From Microcystis aeruginosa NIES-2549 (lineage in GTDB: Bacteria; Cyanobacteriota; Cyanobacteriia; Cyanobacteriales; Microcystaceae), in the NCBI RefSeq assembly GCF_000981785.2, contig NZ_CP011304.1, positions 900,001-932,000 of the forward strand: 32,000 nucleotides of DNA, in the 5' to 3' direction. Positions 2,494-23,242 of this stretch are shown here, in pieces (positions within the stretch are counted from its first letter, which is position 1; each line of letters begins with the position of its first letter). Made by a program: the position numbers and the translations under genes. The notes beneath the pieces were generated by a model. The model saw only the letters and a program-made list of their open reading frames with translations, ran no database searches and was not told the origin of the DNA.

Positions 2494-4101
2494 GTGCTTT
2501 CTAGGCTAATGACTTTGACTAAAAACCCCGTGAGCAGAAACCGTCGTTTTTCCCCGCGCAATCTCTTTGAGACTTGCATGGCCCTATTGGTGTTATGTAA
2601 TTATATTCTGGTTATTTTCGATTTAACTTATATTCCCCTGCGAGATTTTTGGTTACAGGGACGCTTGCAAATAACTTTATTAAGATTTAATGAACCAATA
2701 AAACTCGGTCCGATTTCCTTTCAAGAATTACAAATACCTCCCGATAAACCCCTAGAAATTCCCTTTGTTAAAGGAATTGCTAAGTATGATGTGGTGAAAG
2801 GGATTAAACCCTATCGCAGTACCAGTGAATATTTAGATACAGTTAATAAACTTAATCAAATAATTAATCAAAAACTCTTTAACCCAGAGTTTAATCTGGG
2901 AGAATATCGCCAAGAGATTGAGAAAATTTTAGAAAATTTGCGCCAGAATAGTGTCAATATGGTCGATAATAATCCCTTTGCCTCGGCGGAGAAAACTGGG
3001 ACTTTAGAAAAGATTAAAAATAAAATGCGCTTGCGGGTTTTTAAAACAGAAAATGTTTCCGCAAAAGCAGCCTTTCAGAAGTTTTGGACTTGGGATTATC
3101 TCAGTCAAAATGGCTGGGAAAAAGAGTTGAAATTTTTCAATCAAGAAATTCAACCTTTAATAGAAACTAATTATTTTCGTCCCCTGGGAGAAGATGGGAG
3201 ACCGATAGATAACTTTGAGGCGATCGATTTTTTATTTGGTACCATCTTTTTCTGGGAATTTATGCTGAGAACTTGGTGGATTGCTCGCACTCATAAAGGC
3301 CTGCGTTGGCGCGAGGCTATGTTATGGCGATGGTATGATATTTTTCTGTTTGTTCCTATCTGGAGATGGTTGCGATTTATTCCTACCGTTATTCGCCTAG
3401 ACCAAGTTAAAATTATTAACTTAAAGTTGATTAAAGAACAGGCAGTTAAAGGTTTAGTCGCGCTAATTTCTAAAGATATTACTGAGATAATATTTCTGAG
3501 AATTATTAATCAAACACAGGAATATATTCGACGGGGACAAGTGGAGAAATTTCTCGATCAATCCCTTAGTGGTGGATATAATAATCTCAATGATACTAAT
3601 GAAGTTATCGAAATTTTTCGGTTAGTAGTTAATAGCACTGTTGATAAGGTTTTACCGCAAGTTAAACCGGAAGCAGAAGCTTTAATTAAATACAATATCG
3701 AGAAAATTCTCAGTCAAACTCCCGCTTATCAAAGCTTATTGCGATTACCCGGTATGAAAGGATTAAAAACTGACTTGAGCAATCGTCTATCTAGTCAATT
3801 GTATCAATCTTTTGTTAACATAGCGGAAAAGATTACCCAGGAAGACGAAGTTTTTGAGCGTTTATTACAGCAATTAGTCCAACGTTTCGGGCAATCTCTC
3901 GCCGGGGAATTACAATCCCGTCACAGTCTAGAAAGAATCGAGATGTTATTAATTATCTTCCTAGAAGAAGTGAAATTAAACTATGTAGAAGAATTCTCGG
4001 ATGAAGACTTAGAAACTATCCTCGAACAAACTCGCTTACTCCACTCTCAAAGTGCAGAAATTACCCCAGGAGAAACCATGAATCCTCGTCGTCTTCCCTA
4101 A
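2494..4101 (+). CDS. Membrane protein with voltage-sensor-like (S1-S4) domain and no pore module
   Basis: 535 aa, GTG start (alternative ATG at 2509). Hydrophobic S1 at aa ~25-46. S2-like IDFLFGTIFFWEFMLRTWW, S3-like WYDIFLFVPIW and S4-like RWLRFIPTVIRL at aa ~243-303. Long soluble C-terminal region with no further TM segments and no selectivity-filter motif. Confidence 0.6.
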   Translation: MLSRLMTLTKNPVSRNRRFSPRNLFETCMALLVLCNYILVIFDLTYIPLRDFWLQGRLQITLLRFNEPIKLGPISFQELQIPPDKPLEIPFVKGIAKYDVVKGIKPYRSTSEYLDTVNKLNQIINQKLFNPEFNLGEYRQEIEKILENLRQNSVNMVDNNPFASAEKTGTLEKIKNKMRLRVFKTENVSAKAAFQKFWTWDYLSQNGWEKELKFFNQEIQPLIETNYFRPLGEDGRPIDNFEAIDFLFGTIFFWEFMLRTWWIARTHKGLRWREAMLWRWYDIFLFVPIWRWLRFIPTVIRLDQVKIINLKLIKEQAVKGLVALISKDITEIIFLRIINQTQEYIRRGQVEKFLDQSLSGGYNNLNDTNEVIEIFRLVVNSTVDKVLPQVKPEAEALIKYNIEKILSQTPAYQSLLRLPGMKGLKTDLSNRLSSQLYQSFVNIAEKITQEDEVFERLLQQLVQRFGQSLAGELQSRHSLERIEMLLIIFLEEVKLNYVEEFSDEDLETILEQTRLLHSQSAEITPGETMNPRRLP

Positions 4102-4208: not shown

Positions 4209-4847
4209 ATGTTAACAAAAATTATTCTCGGGTTACTTTGGTTAGGCTTCGGATTATACGCTTTTTTACTAGCACCCCCTGATCAACCAGATACAATAAA
4301 TTTAATTATCGATCTTTCCACTGGAAAATGGCAAAATATTAACCCGTTAATTATCTCTCTTTTCAACCTGATGGGAGTTTGGCCACTTATCTACACTAGC
4401 CTTTTAATTATCGATGGTCGTGACCAAAAAATCATCGCTTGGCCCTTTACTTTTGCCTCCTTTGCCGTGGGTGCTTTCGCTATTTTACCCTATCTAACTC
4501 TCCGTCAACCCAACAGCAATTTTACCGGTAAAAAAAATCTGGTCATTAAACTTTTAGACTCACCTTGGTTGGGAGTAATTGCCCTAATTACTGCGGCAAT
4601 TTTAATCGCTTACGGATTAATTAACGGCAATTGGTCTGATTTTTGGCATCAGTGGCAAACTAGCCGTTTTATTCATGTTATGAGTTTAGATTTCTGTCTT
4701 TTAACCCTATTATGTCCAATTTTGCTGCAAGATGATCTAACCCGACGGGGGTTAAAAAATCCTTTCCTGTTGCCGGTAATTTCCCTTTTGCCTCTAATCG
4801 GTCCGGCAATTTATTTAATTATTCGTCCTCGCTTAGGGGAGAATTAA
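4209..4847 (+). CDS. Integral membrane protein, unknown function
   Basis: 212 aa with about six hydrophobic segments. No catalytic motif recognised. Confidence 0.6.
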   Translation: MLTKIILGLLWLGFGLYAFLLAPPDQPDTINLIIDLSTGKWQNINPLIISLFNLMGVWPLIYTSLLIIDGRDQKIIAWPFTFASFAVGAFAILPYLTLRQPNSNFTGKKNLVIKLLDSPWLGVIALITAAILIAYGLINGNWSDFWHQWQTSRFIHVMSLDFCLLTLLCPILLQDDLTRRGLKNPFLLPVISLLPLIGPAIYLIIRPRLGEN

Positions 4848-15513: not shown

Positions 15514-16068
15514 ATGAGACGAACGATCCTTTTTTTACTGTTTTTTCCGGCTAGTTTAGGCATAATCTCCCAAGTATTCTCACCGGAAAACCTATCCGCT
15601 GCTATTCTTGCCCTAGGTACCCTGGTGATGTGTATGGAACAGGCACGCATGGCAGCGGTGGACTTGGCAGAAATTGCCCAATTTCAGCAAAAAACCAGCG
15701 ATCCTCGCCTCGATCGCTTTTTTATAGTTACAATTAGTACAATTGTTTTAGAATTAGCGGGCTTTTATCTGGCTGCCCTCTGGATAGGATGGGGAGCTTT
15801 AATAGTTTTAGTTAGTCAAATTTGGTTTCATTGTTTAGCCAAAATTCAACTGCAGCCAAGCACGGGAAAAATTATTGACCATGGCATAGGGCCACGTTTA
15901 CCCATCTTACTCGCTGACGGAATCGGCATAATCTTCGTGGCTTTCTGGTTAGCCAAAATTGCCACCCTAATTATGGCCATGACTTTAACGACAATGTTAT
16001 TAATCTACGGCTCTATTAAGTATAGACCTCTTGTCAAAATCAAAAATCTTCCCTTGGTTGAGGAGTAG
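15514..16068 (+). CDS. Integral membrane protein, unknown function
   Basis: 184 aa with 4-5 hydrophobic segments. The start is uncertain (internal Met codons MCMEQARM). Confidence 0.5.
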   Translation: MRRTILFLLFFPASLGIISQVFSPENLSAAILALGTLVMCMEQARMAAVDLAEIAQFQQKTSDPRLDRFFIVTISTIVLELAGFYLAALWIGWGALIVLVSQIWFHCLAKIQLQPSTGKIIDHGIGPRLPILLADGIGIIFVAFWLAKIATLIMAMTLTTMLLIYGSIKYRPLVKIKNLPLVEE

Positions 16069-16245
16069 GTAGCCAGTATTCGGTCGTCAGGAGAATCAAA
16101 AATGAGCTTTAATCAATTAAATTCTCTATTTAGAGATTTTATGCCTATTTTTCTCATTTTTGAACTCTCAAAAATTAATTATCGTTGAGCTTGCCGCTAG
16201 AGGATTTGAGCGCATTTTTCTCTCAGACATCAGCCCTCCTTTGCT

Positions 16246-16268
16246 AAAATGATAATCATTATCATTTT
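16246..16268. promoter_or_regulatory. Fur-family (Zur-type) operator, perfect 11-1-11 palindrome
   Basis: AAAATGATAATCATTATCATTTT. The core TGATAATCATTATCA (16250-16264) equals the 7-1-7 Fur-family consensus. It ends 8 nt before the thrS ATG and overlaps TAAAAT (16245-16250). Confidence 0.7.
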
Positions 16269-16276
16269 AACTGGCA

Positions 16277-18133
16277 ATGGTCAATCAAATTAAGTCCCCC
16301 CTGGCAGAAAGCCCCGTTATCCAAGAAGATTCGCAAAAAATAGTAAAAATACGCCATACTTGCGCCCATATCTTAGCGATGGCCGTACAAACTCTCTTTC
16401 CTGAAACCAAAGTCGCTATTGGTCCCTGGACAGAAACGGGATTCTACTACGATTTTGATCGCCCAACACCCTTTACCCCCGAAGATTTGGAGAAAATAGC
16501 GGCAGAAATGGGGCGAATTATCGGGCAAAACCTGCCAATTATCCGAGAAGTGCTGGAAAGAAGCGAAATTACCGCAGAAATCGAGCGCCTTAATCAACCC
16601 TACAAAAAGTTAATTTTAGAGAGAATTCCCCCAGATGAAACCATTACCCGTTATTTTATCGGTAGTCCGGACGCAGGACGGAGCGATCGAGAACCCTCGT
16701 TAATTGATGGTGCTGTTTCTCCCCCAGAAGAATTTTGGTGGGATCTGTGCGCGGGACCCCATCTCAACTCGACGGGGGAAATTAACCCAGATGCTTTCGT
16801 CTTGGAGAGTGTAGCGGGTGCTTATTGGCAAGGAGATGAAAAACAGCCGCAATTACAGCGAATTTACGGCACAGCTTGGCAAACCCCCGCAGAATTACAA
16901 AATTATCTCCAACAAAAAGAAGAAGCGCAGCGACGAGATCATCGCAAATTGGGACAACAATTAAAATTATTTAGCATCCAAGAAGATGCCGGTGGCGGCT
17001 TAGTTTTTTGGCATCCCCGGGGTGCAACAATGCGTTATTTAATCGAAGATTATTGGCGCCAAGCTCATTTAGAAGCGGGTTATCAATTTCTTTATACTCC
17101 CCATCTAGCTAATTTAGATCTGTGGAAAACTTCTGGACATTGGGACTTTTATCGCGACAATATGTTTGAGGCGATCGAGTTAGAACAGCAAAGCTATCAA
17201 ATTAAGCCGATGAATTGTCCTTTTCATGTTTTAACCTATCAAAATGACCTGCATTCCTATCGAGAATTTCCCCTCAGATGGGCAGAATTAGGCACAGTTT
17301 ATCGTTACGAGCGATCGGGGGTTTTACACGGATTAATGCGGGTGCGAGGTTTTACTCAAGATGATGCTCATATTTTTTGTTTGCCAGAACAAATTGCCGC
17401 AGAGATTCTAGGAGTTTTGAATTTAACCGAGAAAATTCTCTCCGATTTTGGCTTTACTAATTATCAGATAAATTTATCGACTCGTCCCAGTAAATCAGTG
17501 GGTAGTGATAGTGTTTGGGAATTGGCAACGGCGGCTCTAATTGAGGCCTTAAATGCTAAAAAGTGGGATTATATTGAGGATCAGGGAGGTGGGGCTTTTT
17601 ATGGTCCGAAAATTGATATAAAAATTCAAGATGCGATCGGTAGAATGTGGCAATGTTCCACGATTCAGGTCGATTTTAACTTGCCAGAACGCTTTGATAT
17701 GCAATATGTCGCTAGGGATGGTAGTCGCGAAAGACCGATTATGATTCATCGAGCTATTTTTGGCTCTTTGGAAAGATTTTTTGGTATTTTAATCGAGAAT
17801 TATGCGGGAGATTTTCCTCTCTGGTTAGCACCTATTCAAGTCCGTTTATTACCCGTTAGTGATGAACAGCAGCATTATGCTTTAGGGGTGGCAATGCAGT
17901 TAAAACAAGCTGGTTATCGAGTGGAAATCGATAAAAGTGGTGAGCGTTTAGGTAAACAAATTCGTACAGGAGAACTAGAAAAAATACCTGTCTTAGCTGT
18001 GATTGGAAAACGAGAAGTTAGCAGTAAAACTCTAAGTGTTCGCACTCGACAAGGGGGTGATTTAGGTTCGATGACGCTGGCAGATTTATTAGAAAAAATG
18101 CAAACAGCGATCCTATCTAAAACTAATCTCTGA
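16277..18133 (+). CDS. thrS: Threonyl-tRNA synthetase (no N-terminal TGS domain)
   Basis: Editing-domain HxxxH (HTCAH, aa 27-31) and DLCAGPH. Class II catalytic core with zinc ligands in MNCPFH, QDDAHIF, IMIHRA. C-terminal anticodon-binding domain. Confidence 0.96.
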   Translation: MVNQIKSPLAESPVIQEDSQKIVKIRHTCAHILAMAVQTLFPETKVAIGPWTETGFYYDFDRPTPFTPEDLEKIAAEMGRIIGQNLPIIREVLERSEITAEIERLNQPYKKLILERIPPDETITRYFIGSPDAGRSDREPSLIDGAVSPPEEFWWDLCAGPHLNSTGEINPDAFVLESVAGAYWQGDEKQPQLQRIYGTAWQTPAELQNYLQQKEEAQRRDHRKLGQQLKLFSIQEDAGGGLVFWHPRGATMRYLIEDYWRQAHLEAGYQFLYTPHLANLDLWKTSGHWDFYRDNMFEAIELEQQSYQIKPMNCPFHVLTYQNDLHSYREFPLRWAELGTVYRYERSGVLHGLMRVRGFTQDDAHIFCLPEQIAAEILGVLNLTEKILSDFGFTNYQINLSTRPSKSVGSDSVWELATAALIEALNAKKWDYIEDQGGGAFYGPKIDIKIQDAIGRMWQCSTIQVDFNLPERFDMQYVARDGSRERPIMIHRAIFGSLERFFGILIENYAGDFPLWLAPIQVRLLPVSDEQQHYALGVAMQLKQAGYRVEIDKSGERLGKQIRTGELEKIPVLAVIGKREVSSKTLSVRTRQGGDLGSMTLADLLEKMQTAILSKTNL

Positions 18134-18246
18134 AGCTTTTGTATCAACCGGCAAATAGTGGATATCGATCCCTTCCAGGAGAATTTAACAGGGTTGAAAA
18201 AGCCTATTTTCTGTCAATTAATTAACTTAAAAGTGGGTTAGCTGCC

Positions 18247-19278
18247 ATGAGTTCTTTGATAATTCCTCTCTCCGATTCCCTCCCTTGCTTGCCTAAATCG
18301 GGAATGCCTGTGACGATTATTACTGGTTTTTTAGGCAGTGGAAAAACCACTTTACTAAATCATATTCTTGACAATAAAGAAGGTTTAAAAGTTGCCGTTT
18401 TAGTCAATGAGTTTGGGGATATTAATATTGATTCTCAATTGCTTGTTTCCATCGATGAAGATATGGTAGAATTGAGTAATGGCTGTATTTGTTGTACAAT
18501 TAATGATAGTTTAATTGAGACAGTCTATCAGGTCTTAGAAAAAGAAATACCCGTGGACTATCTAATCATTGAAACCACAGGATTAGCCGATCCTTTGCCA
18601 ATTATCCTCACTTTCTTAGCCACGGAATTAAAATATCTGACTCGCTTAGATTCTATTATTACCCTCGTGGATTCTGAAACCTTTACTGCTGATCATTTTG
18701 ATAGTAATATTGCCCTTAGTCAAATTCGTTATGGTGACGTGGTAATTCTCAATAAAATAGATCGAGTAAGTGGCAAAAAATTAGATGATTTAGAAAAGTT
18801 TATTCGTCGGGAAAAAGAGGGTATAAGACTCCTAAAAAGTAGTTATGGTCAGGTTCCTTTGGGTTTATTGTTAGATCTAGGTTTAACTAAAGAAGAATTG
18901 TATAAAGTCCAGTTGAGAGACTTTCAAAAAAATCGCCCAATCTCCAGTGATAATCAATCTCCTGAAGACTTTAATTTTGTCTCCTTTGTTAGCGATAAAC
19001 CATTTAATCTAGATAAATTTGAACCTTTTCTCACGGAAAAAATGCCGATAAATGTTTTTCGAGCAAAAGGGATTCTCTGGTTTCAACAAAGCGATTTAAA
19101 ACATATTTTTCAATTGAGCGGTCTTCGTTACGATCTGCAAGCGGTAGAATGGGATACATCTCCTAATAATCAGTTAGTTTTTATCGGCAGAAATTTAAAT
19201 AAAGAGGAAATCTTGACACAACTAAACGAATGCTTGGCTAGTTCTCAAAAAATTAAAAAGGACAAACTAAGTAGGTAG
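18247..19278 (+). CDS. COG0523-family G3E GTPase metallochaperone (CobW/ZigA/YeiR-like)
   Basis: Walker A GFLGSGKTT (aa 27-35), metal motif CICC (C80-x-C82-C83), ETTGLADP, NKID and a CobW_C-like C-terminal domain. The last 3 codons plus the stop lie inside a MITE end. Confidence 0.9.
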   Translation: MSSLIIPLSDSLPCLPKSGMPVTIITGFLGSGKTTLLNHILDNKEGLKVAVLVNEFGDINIDSQLLVSIDEDMVELSNGCICCTINDSLIETVYQVLEKEIPVDYLIIETTGLADPLPIILTFLATELKYLTRLDSIITLVDSETFTADHFDSNIALSQIRYGDVVILNKIDRVSGKKLDDLEKFIRREKEGIRLLKSSYGQVPLGLLLDLGLTKEELYKVQLRDFQKNRPISSDNQSPEDFNFVSFVSDKPFNLDKFEPFLTEKMPINVFRAKGILWFQQSDLKHIFQLSGLRYDLQAVEWDTSPNNQLVFIGRNLNKEEILTQLNECLASSQKIKKDKLSR

Positions 19279-19371
19279 GTGTTAAAAGTTTTCAGACACC
19301 CCCCTTATCAAGGGGGGCAGGGGGGATCGAACCTAAAATCCATTTTTAATTTAATTATAACCAGCTACTTA
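19268..19371. mobile_element. MITE copy 1 (~100 bp; imperfect terminal inverted repeats, TA flanks)
   Basis: TA-AGTAGGTAGG...CACCCCCCTTATCAAGGGGGG hairpin...CCAGCTACT-TA. The same element occurs at 22148 and 27509. Confidence 0.85.
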
Positions 19372-19651
19372 TGAATAATTTATGGATAAAAACTTTAAAA
19401 TTTAACGAACCCTCGATCCAATGGTTTTACGTCTCTTTGTTCTCCAAGCTCATTATCGCAAACCCTTGCACTTTACGGAAGCGGCGATCACAATTAAAAA
19501 TGATGGGAATTATCTTAGTTGATTTACCCGATGGACAAAGCCAATGGTATCCTAGAGAAAAGAGCCATAACCATGATTAATACCGCAAGAAACCGCCAAT
19601 TTTTCCCAAAATAACCTTGCTAAGTCTAGAGGATTGGTTAAGGAAGATTAC

Positions 19652-19688
19652 TTGCCCCAATCTAACTTATGCTAGAATGATTATCATT
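19652..19688 (+). promoter_or_regulatory. Putative promoter with overlapping Fur/Zur-like 6-1-6 palindrome
   Basis: TTGCCC (19652-19657), 15-nt spacer, extended -10 TGCTAGAAT (19670-19678). The palindrome AATGATTATCATT (19676-19688) matches 12/13 nt of 16248-16260. A strong AAGGAG RBS at 19701-19706 lies 4 nt before ATG 19711. Confidence 0.5.
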
Positions 19689-19710
19689 ACCACAATAAAG
19701 AAGGAGCAAA

Positions 19711-20490
19711 ATGATTATCGTGGTGACGGGGGGTATAGCTGCGGGAAAAACCCATTGGATTCGCCAACAAATCGCCCAAAGCAAGCAGCCAAGTCTATAT
19801 TTTAGTCCCCAGACGGAAACTTTTCCCATTGATCATCTCACTTTACAGAGTGACTTTCCCCAGTTGTCCTCTATTTCTAGGGAAGAAGAAGACCTTTTGA
19901 GCAGTTTATCCATGGAAAACACGGTTTATATGGAAGTACCATGGCATTTAGACGCGCAATCCCTCGAAAGCTTTCTAAAACCCCTCAATTGTCATCGGGT
20001 AGCGATTACGTCTCCAGACGAAGAAATCCCCGAAGGACAAGTTCCCGTCGATGAAATGGTCATCAGTCCCGTCAAAACAACCATAAAAGGTGATCAATGG
20101 TTAAAAAAACGAGAAATACAGATTTATAGAGCCGTTTTAACGGGAGAAATCCTCGATTTTTCCAGTTTAACCACCTTTTGGACAGAATTAACCCAAGGGG
20201 CCTATGGGGAAGTGCTGCGGGTTAAAAGTATCTTCGATATCATCGACGGTCAGTGTATTTATGGGGAATTTATGGATGAATGGCCAGAAAAAGACTTTCA
20301 AAGCTTAAATTTCCCCTTAAATGTCGATGGGAGACCGAATCGCTTCAGTGGGATTGAAATCGTCGGTCGCAATCTCGATAAACCGACAATTGCCGATACC
20401 CTGAGTGATTGTTGTCTGTCCGATGAGGCACTTTTTTATTATCAACAACAATTTCAAGAATCTTTAGAGCCAGAAATGGAGTTAATCTGA
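19711..20490 (+). CDS. P-loop protein with CobW_C-like C-terminal domain (stripped-down COG0523 paralogue)
   Basis: Walker A VTGGIAAGKT (aa 6-14), but no CxCC motif and no NKxD. The C-terminal half parallels the upstream COG0523 protein (LRVKSIFDIIDGQ vs FRAKGILWFQQSD; IEIVGRNLDKPTIADTLSDCCL vs LVFIGRNLNKEEILTQLNECL). Its stop overlaps the next ATG (TGATG). Confidence 0.75.
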   Translation: MIIVVTGGIAAGKTHWIRQQIAQSKQPSLYFSPQTETFPIDHLTLQSDFPQLSSISREEEDLLSSLSMENTVYMEVPWHLDAQSLESFLKPLNCHRVAITSPDEEIPEGQVPVDEMVISPVKTTIKGDQWLKKREIQIYRAVLTGEILDFSSLTTFWTELTQGAYGEVLRVKSIFDIIDGQCIYGEFMDEWPEKDFQSLNFPLNVDGRPNRFSGIEIVGRNLDKPTIADTLSDCCLSDEALFYYQQQFQESLEPEMELI

Positions 20491-21299
20491 TGAAAATAGC
20501 CGTTTTATCCTGTATTCATGGCAATATGCCCGCTTTAAATGCTGTTTTGCAAGATTTAGACCAACAGGGTTGTCAAGAAATCTACTGTTTAGGGGATTTG
20601 GTTGGGTATGGACCCCATCCTAACCAAGTGGTGGAAAAAATCCGTCAACTGGGGATTACTACAGTACAAGGGTGTTGGGATGAGGATATCGTTGAGGGAT
20701 TAAATGCCTGTGAGTGCAGTTATCCGTCGCTTTTAGCAGAAAAACGCGGTAGATTAGCTCATGAGTGGACAAATCAAATAATCACCCCAGAAAACCGTAA
20801 TTATTTGTCAAAACTGCCCGAAATTTTTAAGCTAGATCACCTCTGTTTTGTTCATGGTAGTCCCCAAAATAACCATGAGTATCTTTTAGCCGAAATGGAC
20901 GCTTTTACGGCTTTAGAACGGGTTTTATCGGTAGATACAGAGGTTTTATTCTGTGGACATACCCACATCCCCTACATTCGCACTCTCGACGAGGGAAGCT
21001 TGCAAATAAAAGTGTATCAACCCGATGGGGAACAGTCGCGGCAATTTACCACACCAGTTAAACGTATCATCAACGTGGGATCGGTGGGAGAACCACGTCA
21101 CGGTCGTCCAAATGCCACCTATGTGATTTACGATCGAGAAACGGCAGCGGTACAACTGCGAGAAGTGGCCTATAACTATCAGGAAACCTGTCAGGCTATT
21201 TTAGAATCGGGTTTACCTCCTATTTTCGCTTGGCGATTGGCTAAGGGTCTAGAATATGCGGAAAAAGCCGATGATCCGACTCATGTTTGCGAACGTTAA
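20490..21299 (+). CDS. Metallophosphoesterase (YfcE/MJ0936-like) with Cys substitutions at two metal-ligand positions
   Basis: The calcineurin-like motifs are recognisable. Motif I is SCIHGN instead of SDIHGN (Cys8). Motif II is LGD (D36). Motif III is GCWDE instead of GN(Y/C)D (Cys62). Motif IV is VHGSP (H122), motif V is GHTH (157-159), then GSVGEP. Confidence 0.85.
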   Translation: MKIAVLSCIHGNMPALNAVLQDLDQQGCQEIYCLGDLVGYGPHPNQVVEKIRQLGITTVQGCWDEDIVEGLNACECSYPSLLAEKRGRLAHEWTNQIITPENRNYLSKLPEIFKLDHLCFVHGSPQNNHEYLLAEMDAFTALERVLSVDTEVLFCGHTHIPYIRTLDEGSLQIKVYQPDGEQSRQFTTPVKRIINVGSVGEPRHGRPNATYVIYDRETAAVQLREVAYNYQETCQAILESGLPPIFAWRLAKGLEYAEKADDPTHVCER

Positions 21300-21302
21300 T
21301 TT

Positions 21303-22019
21303 GTGATAAATCAAGAAATTATGTGGGCAATTTTAAGCGGTATTCAAGGCAATTTACCAGCCTATCAAGCGGTCTTGGAAGATATTCAGCAACGGTCAGT
21401 TACTGTAGAAAATTTATATATTTTAGGAGATTTTATCGGTGTTAATCCCGATAGTGAAATGCTAGTAGAACAAATACGTTATCCCACTAAAAATAACTTA
21501 TATCCGCAGGTTTGTCGGGGATGGTGGGAAGAACAATGTCTAATTTTACACAGTTTAGGAGCCACAGGAGAACCGACGGAATTAATCCATAAATATGGAA
21601 TTGATAGCACTAAACAACTCTGGGACGCAGTTTCTTTAGAAACGGTGCAATGGTTACGAAATCTCGATTTTGGTTTTGTCGAGTTGGATTGTTTATTAAT
21701 TCATGGCAGTAGTGTCAGTGTTAGTGAAGAATTAACCCCCGATACTCCCCCATGGCAAATTTTAGATCGACTGCAACGGGTGGGAGTTAATAATCTATTT
21801 TGTGGTCGTGCAGGACAAGTTTTTGATTATTCTTTACAGTCCGCTAATTTAACCAGCACTGTTACTACTTTAGATAAACGGCAACCAAGTCAAACTTTGA
21901 CGATTCAAGATAAGCGTTTAATTGGGGTTGGTAGCGTTGGTAAAGAATTAAATAAAGCAGTTTACACTCTCTATAATCCTAGTAATAATTGCGTGGAGTT
22001 TAGAACCGTACCTTATTAA
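21303..22019 (+). CDS. Degenerate metallophosphoesterase paralogue (predicted pseudoenzyme)
   Basis: Same fold signposts as the preceding gene, but motif I is SGIQGN (D and H lost), motif III is RGWWEE and motif V is GRAG (both His lost). Only LGD and IHGSS are retained. Start is GTG 21303 or ATG 21321 (MWAILSGIQGN aligns with MKIAVLSCIHGN). Confidence 0.75.
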   Translation: MINQEIMWAILSGIQGNLPAYQAVLEDIQQRSVTVENLYILGDFIGVNPDSEMLVEQIRYPTKNNLYPQVCRGWWEEQCLILHSLGATGEPTELIHKYGIDSTKQLWDAVSLETVQWLRNLDFGFVELDCLLIHGSSVSVSEELTPDTPPWQILDRLQRVGVNNLFCGRAGQVFDYSLQSANLTSTVTTLDKRQPSQTLTIQDKRLIGVGSVGKELNKAVYTLYNPSNNCVEFRTVPY

Positions 22020-22147
22020 TCTTTCAGAGATTAATTAAATATTCAAGATTAATTTACAGCCTTTATCGTAAAAGTGAAGTACAAAATAACCTTTGCTAAC
22101 TAGGTATTTTAGATGCGATAACGTACCTCATCTATCTAAGAAAAGCT

Positions 22148-22261
22148 GTAAGTAGGTAGGCGTTAAAAATTATCAGACACCCCCCTTATCAAGGGGGGAC
22201 TAAGGGGGGATTAAGGGGGGATCAAGGGGGGATTTATCTTCAACTTAATTATAACCAGCTA
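22148..22261. mobile_element. MITE copy 2 (right end diverged; internal G-rich 10-mer expansion)
   Basis: TA-AGTAGGTAGGCGTTAAAAATTATCAGACACCCCCCTTATCAAGGGGGG, followed by (AAGGGGGGAT-like) x3-4, then ...TTAATTATAACCAGCTA. The final CTA is the complement of the methyltransferase TAG stop. Confidence 0.8.
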
Positions 22262-23242
22262 GATAACTGAGGTAAGAGACTCTTGCTGACTTGCTTGCAG
22301 ATGGGATTTAGCGCGAACAGCGCGGAACATCCCAAAACGACATAAACCCGTACCAAAGGCCAAACGCATCAGCAGAATTGTCGGCACTTCTCGGACGGAT
22401 TTAACCAACCCAGTTAGACCAAATTGCCACCAACCTTGGGGACGAATCACCCCCTGCCAAATGGTATCAATCCAAGAGGGTAGAGTGGCTTTTGTCCAGT
22501 CAGCAGTCACCACTTCCCCATCTACCAATCCCGTGGCCGCTAACTGTTCGGCAAAACCTTCGATACTGGCAAAAGCGGGGTGGGACCACTGATCCAAAAG
22601 TTGGCGCATTACAGGACTTTCCCAGAAATTGAGCGGTTTTTGACGGTCATCTCGCTGATTCCAGTCCGCTACCACTAGGACTCCCCCCGGCTTAAGAACT
22701 CGCAGTAATTCCTGAGCAAAAACGGCTTTGTCCGGCATATGGGGACCGGCTTCAATTGACCAGACCACATCAAAACTCTCGTCGGGAAAAGAAAGGGCCA
22801 TGGCATCATCGACCAAAAAGCGAGCATTTACATCTGGGGGTGTTAGTTCTTTGGCCCGTGCCACTTGTTTGGGACTAATGGTGACACCGGTAACGGCAAA
22901 TCCGTAGTCGCGGGCCAGAATGCGACTGCTGCCACCAATACCACAACCGACATCGAGGAGAGTTGCACCGGCGGGTAGTTTATCCAAACCTCCCCAAGAG
23001 ACCATTTCCGCCACAAAGTCGGCTTTTGCCTGTAGAAAGTCTTTTTTTTCTGGTGGGGAACCGTAGTGACCTAAATGGATGTGTTCGCCCCAATAATATT
23101 CTAAAATCCCGTCCTCGGTCCATTGGTCGTAGGAATTGGCCACCGAGTCCGACGATTGGTACTTGCGAGAGGAAACAAAATAGACGACGATAGCGATCGC
23201 TAGGAGTAAACCTAAAGATGATGTCACCAAAAGTATATTCAT
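22259..23242 (-). CDS. SAM-dependent methyltransferase, MPBQ/MSBQ (tocopherol/plastoquinone pathway, Synechocystis sll0418-like)
   Basis: N-terminal TM segment, then YQSSDSVANSYDQWTEDGILEYYWGEHIHLGHYG, SAM motif LLDVGCGIGGSS and VLKPGGVLVVADW. ATG 23242 (MNILL) is preferred over the TTG at 23269. The specific substrate call is from remembered similarity. Confidence 0.8.
   Translation of the reverse strand: MNILLVTSSLGLLLAIAIVVYFVSSRKYQSSDSVANSYDQWTEDGILEYYWGEHIHLGHYGSPPEKKDFLQAKADFVAEMVSWGGLDKLPAGATLLDVGCGIGGSSRILARDYGFAVTGVTISPKQVARAKELTPPDVNARFLVDDAMALSFPDESFDVVWSIEAGPHMPDKAVFAQELLRVLKPGGVLVVADWNQRDDRQKPLNFWESPVMRQLLDQWSHPAFASIEGFAEQLAATGLVDGEVVTADWTKATLPSWIDTIWQGVIRPQGWWQFGLTGLVKSVREVPTILLMRLAFGTGLCRFGMFRAVRAKSHLQASQQESLTSVI

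Follow-up and report, generated by a model that had tools for sequence, protein, structure and literature searches.

Cysteines at two metal-ligand positions define a clade of metallophosphoesterases encoded with a divergent COG0523-like NTPase in a zinc-related context in cyanobacteria

In metallophosphoesterases of the calcineurin fold, the positions of motif I and motif III bind different metals, on opposite sides of the metal pair. The Asp of motif I is present in virtually all members of the superfamily except Dbr1, in which an invariant Cys takes its place and is essential for activity (PMC4176325), and the yeast enzyme retains stoichiometric Fe and Zn, not Mn, on purification (PMC9202583). 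Here we describe a further departure from the consensus, found in a 32,000-nucleotide stretch of the chromosome of Microcystis aeruginosa NIES-2549 (NZ_CP011304.1, positions 900,001 to 932,000; hereafter the window, to which coordinates given without a locus handle refer). An open reading frame (ORF) at 20490..21299 (+; 269 aa, starting MKIAVLSCIHGN) encodes, as judged from Pfam scores, alignments and AlphaFold2 (AF2) models, a Cys-type metallophosphoesterase in which Cys stands at the position of the motif I Asp and again at that of the motif III Asn. A preliminary description of this stretch, made from its letters alone, had proposed these substitutions and had suspected a Fur/Zur-type operator at the locus.

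The ORF scored 74 bits against PF12850 (Metallophos_2; cut-off 27) and 37.3 bits against PF00149 (Metallophos; cut-off 21.5), and by profile score and fold its product is a member of the calcineurin-like metallophosphoesterase superfamily. All five calcineurin-like motifs, which the preliminary description had considered placeable, were located by residue: SCIHGN (motif I, residues 7-12), GDLVGYG (motif II, 35-41), GCWDE (motif III, 61-65), VHGSP (motif IV, 121-125) and GHTH (motif V, 156-159). Motifs II, IV and V agree with the superfamily pattern through invariant residues (GD35-36, H122 and GHTH156-159), whereas motif I reads C-I-H instead of D-x-H, with the His kept and the Asp replaced by an invariant Cys, and motif III reads G-C-W-D instead of G-N-H-(D/E), with an invariant Cys in place of the Asn and a Trp in place of the His. 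The remaining ligands (His10, Asp36, His122, His157 and His159) are in place.

The assignment of the two Cys to ligand columns was examined with three kinds of alignment. The codons concerned lie at 20511..20513 (+; Cys8) and 20673..20675 (+; Cys62), and both residues are invariant in the clade. Aligned by phmmer with the solved structure 3rqz_A (E 2.1e-31), SCIHGN fell on SDVHAN and GCWD on GNHD, and a multiple alignment with the 150 nearest representatives (the best representatives of 50%-identity clusters, from 14,816 matches at E up to 0.001) gave the same column placement. A profile hidden Markov model (HMM) built from 109 canonical relatives scored the query at 318 bits and matched SDIHgN to SCIHGN and GNHD to GCWD with posterior confidence at its maximum, which speaks against a misalignment. 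Because the phmmer, multiple and profile alignments agree, Cys8 is placed on the column of the motif I Asp ligand and Cys62 on that of the motif III Asn ligand, and with the other ligands kept, the Asp-to-Cys and Asn-to-Cys swaps of the preliminary description are borne out. From the fold and the Dbr1 precedent, it is reasonable to infer that a thiolate is gained at each metal site and that metal preference is shifted. A disulfide between Cys8 and Cys62 was judged unlikely, as these positions ligate different metals.

The Cys in motif I (Cys8 here) is the only feature shared with Dbr1. Dbr1 differs in keeping the motif III Asn and in lacking both the CxC insert and the [H/C]xC tail described below, whereas its lariat-recognition loop and C-terminal domain are absent from the 269-aa protein; moreover, it is eukaryotic and has no link to zinc regulation or to a G3E NTPase. 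No Dbr1 chain appeared among the PDB sequence matches at E up to 1 or in the top 50 Foldseek matches, and the phosphoesterase is not detectably closer to Dbr1 than to other members of the superfamily. Membership in Dbr1 was ruled out by scores and architecture, and the YfcE family (the TIGR00040/PRK09453 family) was rejected by score (TIGR00040, 31.1 bits against a cut-off of 56.25; NF006988, 50 against 117). PhoD, which is related to the purple acid phosphatases of the calcineurin fold, has its Cys at a position other than those of motif I and motif III. In the Bacillus subtilis enzyme, Cys124 bonds the active-site Fe atom (PMC6950083), so a thiolate ligand is compatible with phosphoester hydrolysis. 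PhoD is otherwise a secreted alkaline phosphatase/phosphodiesterase of another subfamily and architecture (one Fe3+, two Ca2+), unrelated in sequence to the present protein at the level searched.

Both Cys were found in 121 of 121 close homologues (68-97% identical), all of them cyanobacterial and derived from Gloeothece, Chamaesiphon, Nostoc, Fischerella, Microcoleus and Synechocystis, as well as in all examined orthologues from Prochlorococcus and marine Synechococcus. The closest protein match, from a JGI metagenome, is 97% identical, and the best species-representative locus 76%. A second, non-cyanobacterial clade has both Cys in at least 109 of 120 members, the rest being N-terminal fragments or sequences missed by the regular expression, and its hosts include Kiloniellales, Sorangium, Polyangiaceae, Pseudobacteriovorax, Verrucomicrobiales and a metagenome-assembled genome (MAG) labelled Thaumarchaeota. 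Although the two clades are only about 40% identical to each other, H10, N12, D36, D64, H122, H157, H159 and R203 are invariant or nearly so across both. Cys62 occurs in 16 of the 150 nearest representatives (14 with both Cys and two lacking the N-terminus), all of which fall in the two Cys clades, while 128 full-length others have Asp and Asn and the exceptions are P0204 (Cys/Asn) and P0225 (Val/Asn). In this sample, then, both the double Cys and any replacement of the motif III Asn are confined to the two clades, and the concern that Cys might be common at these columns in ordinary relatives does not apply. P0204 is a 468-aa fusion from Planctomycetota, annotated as a sigma-70 family factor, whose phosphoesterase domain combines GCVHAN with GNHE; its motif I Asp-to-Cys change appears to be an independent single swap.

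Across 69 loci, each signature Cys is encoded by TGT in some and by TGC in others, and selection therefore acts on the amino acid. Neighbour-joining (72 taxa, 222 columns, 200 bootstraps) recovered the cyanobacterial Cys clade in 200/200 replicates and the second Cys clade in 195/200, and joined the two in 165/200, a figure that became 181/200 when the CxC sister group was added. These bootstrap groupings lend moderate support to a single origin of the double swap, and on the sequences compared the double Cys is a clade signature, not a one-off.

The alignments further indicate that the swaps belong to a larger signature consisting of the double swap, a CxC motif and a C-terminal tail. Cys74-Glu-Cys76 (20709..20717, +), invariant in both Cys clades, lies 12 residues past motif III, within a 9-residue insert; the insert is also present in a GNYD sister group and is missing from the 109 canonical relatives. 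In the C-terminal tail, His265-Val-Cys267 (21282..21290, +) is invariant in cyanobacteria, and the second clade has a CxC at the extreme C-terminus in place of H265-x-C267. This extension of about 15 residues occurs only with both swaps and is missing from the sister and canonical groups. In addition, His204 stands where the family motif GQPRDG has Asp, and most members have Cys155 before GHTH. The GNYD + CGC sister group (P0134 and P0138-P0142; loci L081 8013-8849, L082 4350-5117 and L083 1392-2126) consists of uncharacterised bacterial metallophosphoesterases that have the same 9-residue CxC insert but keep Asp and Asn, carry Tyr rather than Trp in motif III and lack the [H/C]xC tail.

AF2 predicted a confident calcineurin fold, with a predicted local distance difference test (pLDDT) score of 81 from a shallow alignment and 91.8 from a deeper one. 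The CxC loop and the C-terminal tail were the lowest-confidence segments in both models, which is compatible with segments that become ordered only around a cofactor. Foldseek returned 3rqz as the best match, followed by SapH (3qfm), with a probability of 1.00 to 3rqz, SapH, YfcE, lambda phosphatase, PP1 and calcineurin. The closest solved structure, 3rqz (Sphaerobacter thermophilus, structural genomics; Foldseek TM 0.69-0.77), shares with its canonical relatives and with the phosphoesterase the length class, the GSVGxPR motif and the C-terminal helices, but has the canonical Asp and Asn (GNHD) and an Asp at the His204 position, and lacks the CxC insert and the Cys/His tail. The closest characterised enzyme by fold is SapH/Spr1479, a streptococcal asymmetric Ap4A hydrolase and phosphodiesterase (Foldseek E 1.7e-15, TM 0.67). 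It shares the Trp after the motif III ligand (GNWE, against GCWD here), whereas its identity is only 23%, its Asp and Asn are canonical, it has none of the Cys features and it has no zinc-regulon context.

The phosphoesterase gene is the middle member of a three-gene module. Upstream lies a gene for a P-loop protein (19711..20490, +; 259 aa) with a Walker A motif GxxGxGKT and a CobW_C-like C-terminal domain, whose stop codon overlaps the phosphoesterase start codon, and downstream lies a ligand-depleted phosphoesterase paralogue (21303..22019, +; 238 aa). The order P-loop gene, Cys-type phosphoesterase and paralogue is kept in about nine-tenths of 79 cyanobacterial loci (GTDB species representatives and other assemblies, with most exceptions at contig ends), and the module spans Prochlorococcus to Nostocales. 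At the junction between P-loop gene and phosphoesterase, the frames overlap in 38 of 71 loci and are separated by no more than 30 nt in a further 29, so that 67/71 overlap or abut. RefSeq labels the three products 'GTP-binding protein' or 'hypothetical', 'metallophosphoesterase family protein', and 'metallophosphatase' or 'metallo-dependent phosphatase', respectively. The P-loop protein and the paralogue gave no Pfam or NCBIfam match, and neither database holds a curated family for the Cys clade or its two partners.

A PDB search with the single P-loop sequence found nothing, and the family alignment (A3) was more informative. Conserved in it are the sequence GxxGxGKT(T)W, an acidic residue that follows a hydrophobic strand and, towards the C-terminus, the block SL..FW.EL..GAYG.V.RAKG...GRP.R.SG.E..G..L. 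Compared by hhalign with a COG0523 alignment, A3 matched at a probability of 96% (E 2.6e-9), residues 146-243 corresponding to CobW_C. Against the PDB, the best informative match of the A3 profile was the COG0523 protein YjiA (E 0.003); repeat-inflated RecA matches ranked above it, and the others were generic P-loop proteins. Neither CxCC nor NKxD is found in A3, and there is no Pfam cobW match. On these comparisons, which point to a YjiA-like P-loop as well as the CobW_C-like domain, the P-loop partner is classed as a divergent COG0523-like NTPase, a relative rather than a regular member, and its family seems to be a branch of the G3E/COG0523 NTPases that had not been recognised.

Metallochaperones of the COG0523 type are known to pair with clients, as ZNG1 does with METAP1 and as the nitrile hydratase activators do. 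Zur-regulated COG0523 clusters have also been described (PMC2770081). The module resembles such clusters in placing the genes of a G3E-family NTPase and a metalloenzyme together in a zinc-responsive setting; it differs in that the NTPase lacks the CxCC and the guanine-specificity motif, that the client would be a phosphoesterase whose ligands have been re-engineered, and that the module includes a dead paralogue. The papers searched described no pair of this kind. In the literature linking (metallo)phosphoesterases with Zur, COG0523 or zinc starvation we found no dedicated study; the sole mention was a passing one, of a probable homologue in a paper on PCC 7002 (PMC4628125), and the gene goes unmentioned in the papers on Synechocystis, WH8102 and ZepA.

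The paralogue, whose motifs read SGIQGN, GDFIG, GWWEE, HGSS and GRAG, is 31% identical to the phosphoesterase by BLASTP (E 3e-25). It lacks the ligands of motifs I, III and V and has thereby lost five of seven metal ligands, and only the motif II Asp and the motif IV His are kept across its family. It follows the phosphoesterase gene in almost every cyanobacterial locus and, judged from these losses, is probably a pseudo-enzyme partner. Drn1, a homologue of Dbr1, is reported to interact with Dbr1 and to enhance its activity (PMC4105757), and the Drn1/Dbr1 pair offers a loose parallel to the ligand-depleted paralogue encoded here.

The Zur site of Anabaena is a 7-1-7 palindrome (PMC3323870). 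In the window, a perfect 7-1-7 Zur-type box, TGATAATCATTATCA (16250..16264; 0 mismatches to TGATAATNATTATCA), lies 13 nt upstream of a threonyl-tRNA synthetase (ThrRS) gene, and an imperfect one, TGATTATCATTACCA (19678..19692; 2 mismatches), lies 19 nt upstream of the P-loop gene; the window as a whole contains 16 matches to TGATAATNATTATCA at up to 3 mismatches, against 3.15 expected. The ThrRS (16277..18133, +; NCBIfam TIGR00418, 706 bits) is probably a zinc-starvation paralogue of the ThrS2 type, and next comes the gene of a canonical COG0523 GTPase, whose CxCC motif reads GCICC (18247..19278, +; Pfam cobW 182 bits, CobW_C 73 bits). Zur represses thrS2 of Anabaena, which shares a transcript with a COG0523 gene (PMC4787780), and the ThrRS and COG0523 pair of the window matches this Zur-repressed thrS2/all4722 pair. 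A promoter and terminator consensus scan of 16000-22400 performed no better than on shuffled sequence. After the stop codon of the COG0523 gene, in the 430-nt spacer that precedes the P-loop gene, a G/C-rich inverted repeat, cccccttatcaaggggggcagggggg (19296-19325), may be a terminator or a repeat element; it went unflagged in a simple terminator scan.

Across cyanobacteria, a box with no more than 2 mismatches occurs within 300 nt upstream of the P-loop gene in 37 of 71 loci, against 0.07 per kb elsewhere, and in many of the box-less loci the module follows genes for delta-aminolevulinic acid dehydratase (ALAD), COG0523 or FolE that have a box further upstream. Recurrent neighbours of the module are ALAD (HemB), FolE, ThrRS and HisI, which are classic paralogues of zinc starvation, and COG0523. 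In Picosynechococcus PCC 7117, a perfect box stands in the divergent promoter before the module, which in strains of the PCC 7002 type is plasmid-borne beside hemB-II and folE-II (L088, 3757-9532, in PCC 7117). With a perfect box before ThrRS, a 2-mismatch box before the module and the recurrence in 37/71 loci, the suspected Fur/Zur-type operator gains support. Because its promoter carries a Zur box, the module is predicted to be transcribed from it and produced when zinc is scarce. On plasmid pAQ7 of PCC 7002, hemB-II, folE-II, the GTPase-like G0131 and G0132 are induced in a zur mutant and by TPEN (PMC4628125). Judged against PCC 7117, the P-loop gene of PCC 7002 is probably G0131, and the two phosphoesterase-fold genes are probably G0129 and G0130.

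The second clade sits in islands of similar content. In nine of ten non-cyanobacterial loci, a FeoB-like GTPase/Gate protein and/or a COG0523 protein is encoded beside the Cys-type gene, often in overlapping frames, and FUR-family regulators, ZnuA, a ZIP transporter, an L33 paralogue, a cysteinyl-tRNA synthetase (CysRS) paralogue and DUF1826 are found nearby. As the second-clade loci also carry zinc-homeostasis genes, the association of this phosphoesterase type with such genes holds across phyla, and it is the strongest functional clue that we obtained. The FeoB-like proteins, composed of a small GTPase and Gate domains and 546-588 aa long, were located at L084 1943-3694, L085 3346-4992, L086 5887-7596, L090 1770-3419, L091 1578-3344, L092 6544-8211 and L078 8833-10473, where they recur beside COG0523 and the Cys-type phosphoesterase, near FUR-family genes. 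Typical FeoB proteins are longer, and those found here might be zinc-starvation rather than iron transporters. Likely zinc-starvation paralogues in these islands are L33 (L092 8240-8398), CysRS (L087 10283-10816) and HisI (L089 4323-4673).

Following the second-clade gene, with an overlapping start, is a conserved gene for a protein of 216-240 aa (L084 5894-6616, L091 5894-6544 and L092 5840-6544), the three copies of which are 39-52% identical to each other. The protein matched no Pfam family and showed no BLASTP similarity to the cyanobacterial partners; for want of similarity, the idea that it is a homologue of the dead paralogue was rejected. WD40 beta-propeller proteins adjoin the COG0523 genes at L074 4190-5269, L084 7206-7871 and 9658-10716, and L087 1787-2209, and DUF1636 and DUF1826 proteins also occur in the non-cyanobacterial islands.

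We tentatively favour the explanation that the protein is a phosphodiesterase that serves in zinc starvation and has its thiolate-enriched metal sites loaded by a G3E-like NTPase of its own; that the enzyme is part of the response to zinc limitation is probable. In this proposal, the full binuclear site would be kept, with two hard O-donors exchanged for thiolates, one at each metal position, and with a Cys/His site added by the CxC loop and the C-terminal [H/C]xC tail. The enzyme would be co-produced, from a Zur-box promoter, with the translationally coupled upstream NTPase and the dead paralogue. Its thiolate-enriched sites would bind Zn(II), or an Fe(II)/Zn(II) pair like that of Dbr1, so tightly that the enzyme remains metallated even when hardly any free zinc is present; the dedicated G3E-type NTPase, acting as a metallochaperone, would load or proof-read the metal, and the dead paralogue would be a structural partner in a putative three-protein complex. 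The holo-enzyme would hydrolyse a phosphodiester or nucleotide-type substrate, as SapH and YfcE do. A bolder extension, which we regard as possible but doubtful, would make the module a near-universal and hitherto unrecognised cyanobacterial machine, matched in other phyla by a counterpart cassette (FeoB-like protein, COG0523, Cys-type phosphoesterase, the protein of about 225 aa and FUR), in which the pocket, CxC loop and tail form a new thiolate-rich centre that needs NTP-dependent assembly and serves as an enzyme or a metal relay in zinc starvation.

Several observations weigh against the explanation that we favour. The CxCC metal motif that characterises COG0523 proteins is missing from the P-loop partner, the C-terminal tail is predicted at low confidence even in the AF2 model with a pLDDT of 91.8, and most marine picocyanobacterial loci have no box that matches the consensus used. 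In PCC 7002, transcripts of G0129, which is annotated as a phosphoesterase, and of G0130 were reported as not raised in the zur mutant, although both genes belong to the pAQ7 cluster induced by TPEN and by loss of Zur and the adjacent G0131 did respond (PMC4628125). Finally, a thiolate-rich and possibly zinc-hungrier protein made during starvation contradicts the logic of zinc sparing, in which paralogues lose Cys ligands.

Among the alternatives, the protein could be a metal handler instead of an enzyme, namely a Cys/His acceptor, buffer or sensor for zinc (or iron) placed between an importer or GTPase and its clients, with vestigial phosphoesterase chemistry. The translational coupling of the second-clade gene to a FeoB-like GTPase/permease, beside COG0523, and that of the cyanobacterial gene to a COG0523-like NTPase would fit such a role, as would the conserved non-catalytic Cys and His residues (C74, C76, C155, H204, H265 and C267) and the extreme C-terminal CxC, which resembles a flexible metal-transfer tail. 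We nevertheless consider it rather unlikely: Asn12, Asp64 and Arg203 (of the GxPR motif), non-ligand residues of presumably enzymatic relatives, are kept, loss of ligands is the rule among the known non-catalytic members of the fold and is seen in the adjacent paralogue, and we know of no metallochaperone of the calcineurin fold. A role in zinc sparing, as a zinc-independent isozyme that uses another thiophilic metal (Co, Ni, Cd or Fe) at low zinc, is less probable, although the gene sits among replacement paralogues (ThrRS, ALAD/HemB, FolE, HisI, L33 and CysRS) under Zur boxes and its COG0523 neighbours are compatible with the delivery of other metals. Replacement paralogues normally shed Cys ligands, whereas here they are gained; the 120 closest database relatives are all of the Cys type, with no close canonical counterpart seen among them; and the presence of the module even in the streamlined genomes of Prochlorococcus suggests a primary rather than a back-up role.

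An iron-sulfur or polynuclear thiolate cluster, built from C8, C62, C74, C76, H/C265 and C267 in or over the old pocket and serving redox or other non-hydrolytic chemistry with NTPase-assisted assembly, as for Ni/Fe centres (G3E, CooC-type), seems to us slightly less probable again. It would account for the constant company of the two swaps and the tail, on a CxC background, for the low confidence of the CxC and tail segments in AF2 models, which cannot place cofactors, and for the dedicated NTPase encoded alongside, and one second-clade locus does adjoin a gene containing FeoB_N. Yet all five canonical His/Asp ligands are kept, more in keeping with a binuclear site than with a cubane, no Fe-S spacing motif can be recognised, and the CxC also occurs in sister proteins that have an ordinary Asp/Asn site and no tail; the context, with Zur boxes, ZnuA, ZIP and COG0523, is zinc-related rather than one of Fe-S biogenesis. 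That the substitutions are neutral or inactivating, in a decaying or ordinary family member, is extremely improbable, its sole support being that the motifs depart from the consensus. More than 230 sequences, of 37-97% identity and from several phyla, all carry Cys8 and Cys62, and this invariance together with synonymous codon turnover rules out neutral or decaying change; moreover, the phosphoesterase keeps all its other ligands, and a truly decayed paralogue next door serves as a contrast.

The rest of the window looks like ordinary cyanobacterial chromosome, with genes for UvrC, ABC transporters (including a solute-binding/TOBE/NIL set), RNase III, a Crp-like regulator, a methyltransferase, an amidase and a phosphoribosyltransferase. 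Two ORFs, at 2494-4101 (535 aa) and 4209-4847 (212 aa), matched no Pfam family at E up to 1e-5.

What was known beforehand is the fold and, in part, a precedent for the swap; what is new is the combination of double swap, CxC and tail, and its NTPase-linked zinc-regulon context. Dbr1, the only well-studied exception, changes one ligand, whereas here a whole clade changes one ligand per metal and adds two Cys/His segments. If the thiolates retune metal affinity or selectivity, the family would represent a natural experiment in which a hydrolytic binuclear site has been adapted to metal scarcity, and it would supply a candidate client or partner for the metallochaperones of the COG0523 type, few of whose clients are known. 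It would also be an unexplained and seemingly core part of the zinc economy of the phototrophs that dominate the ocean.

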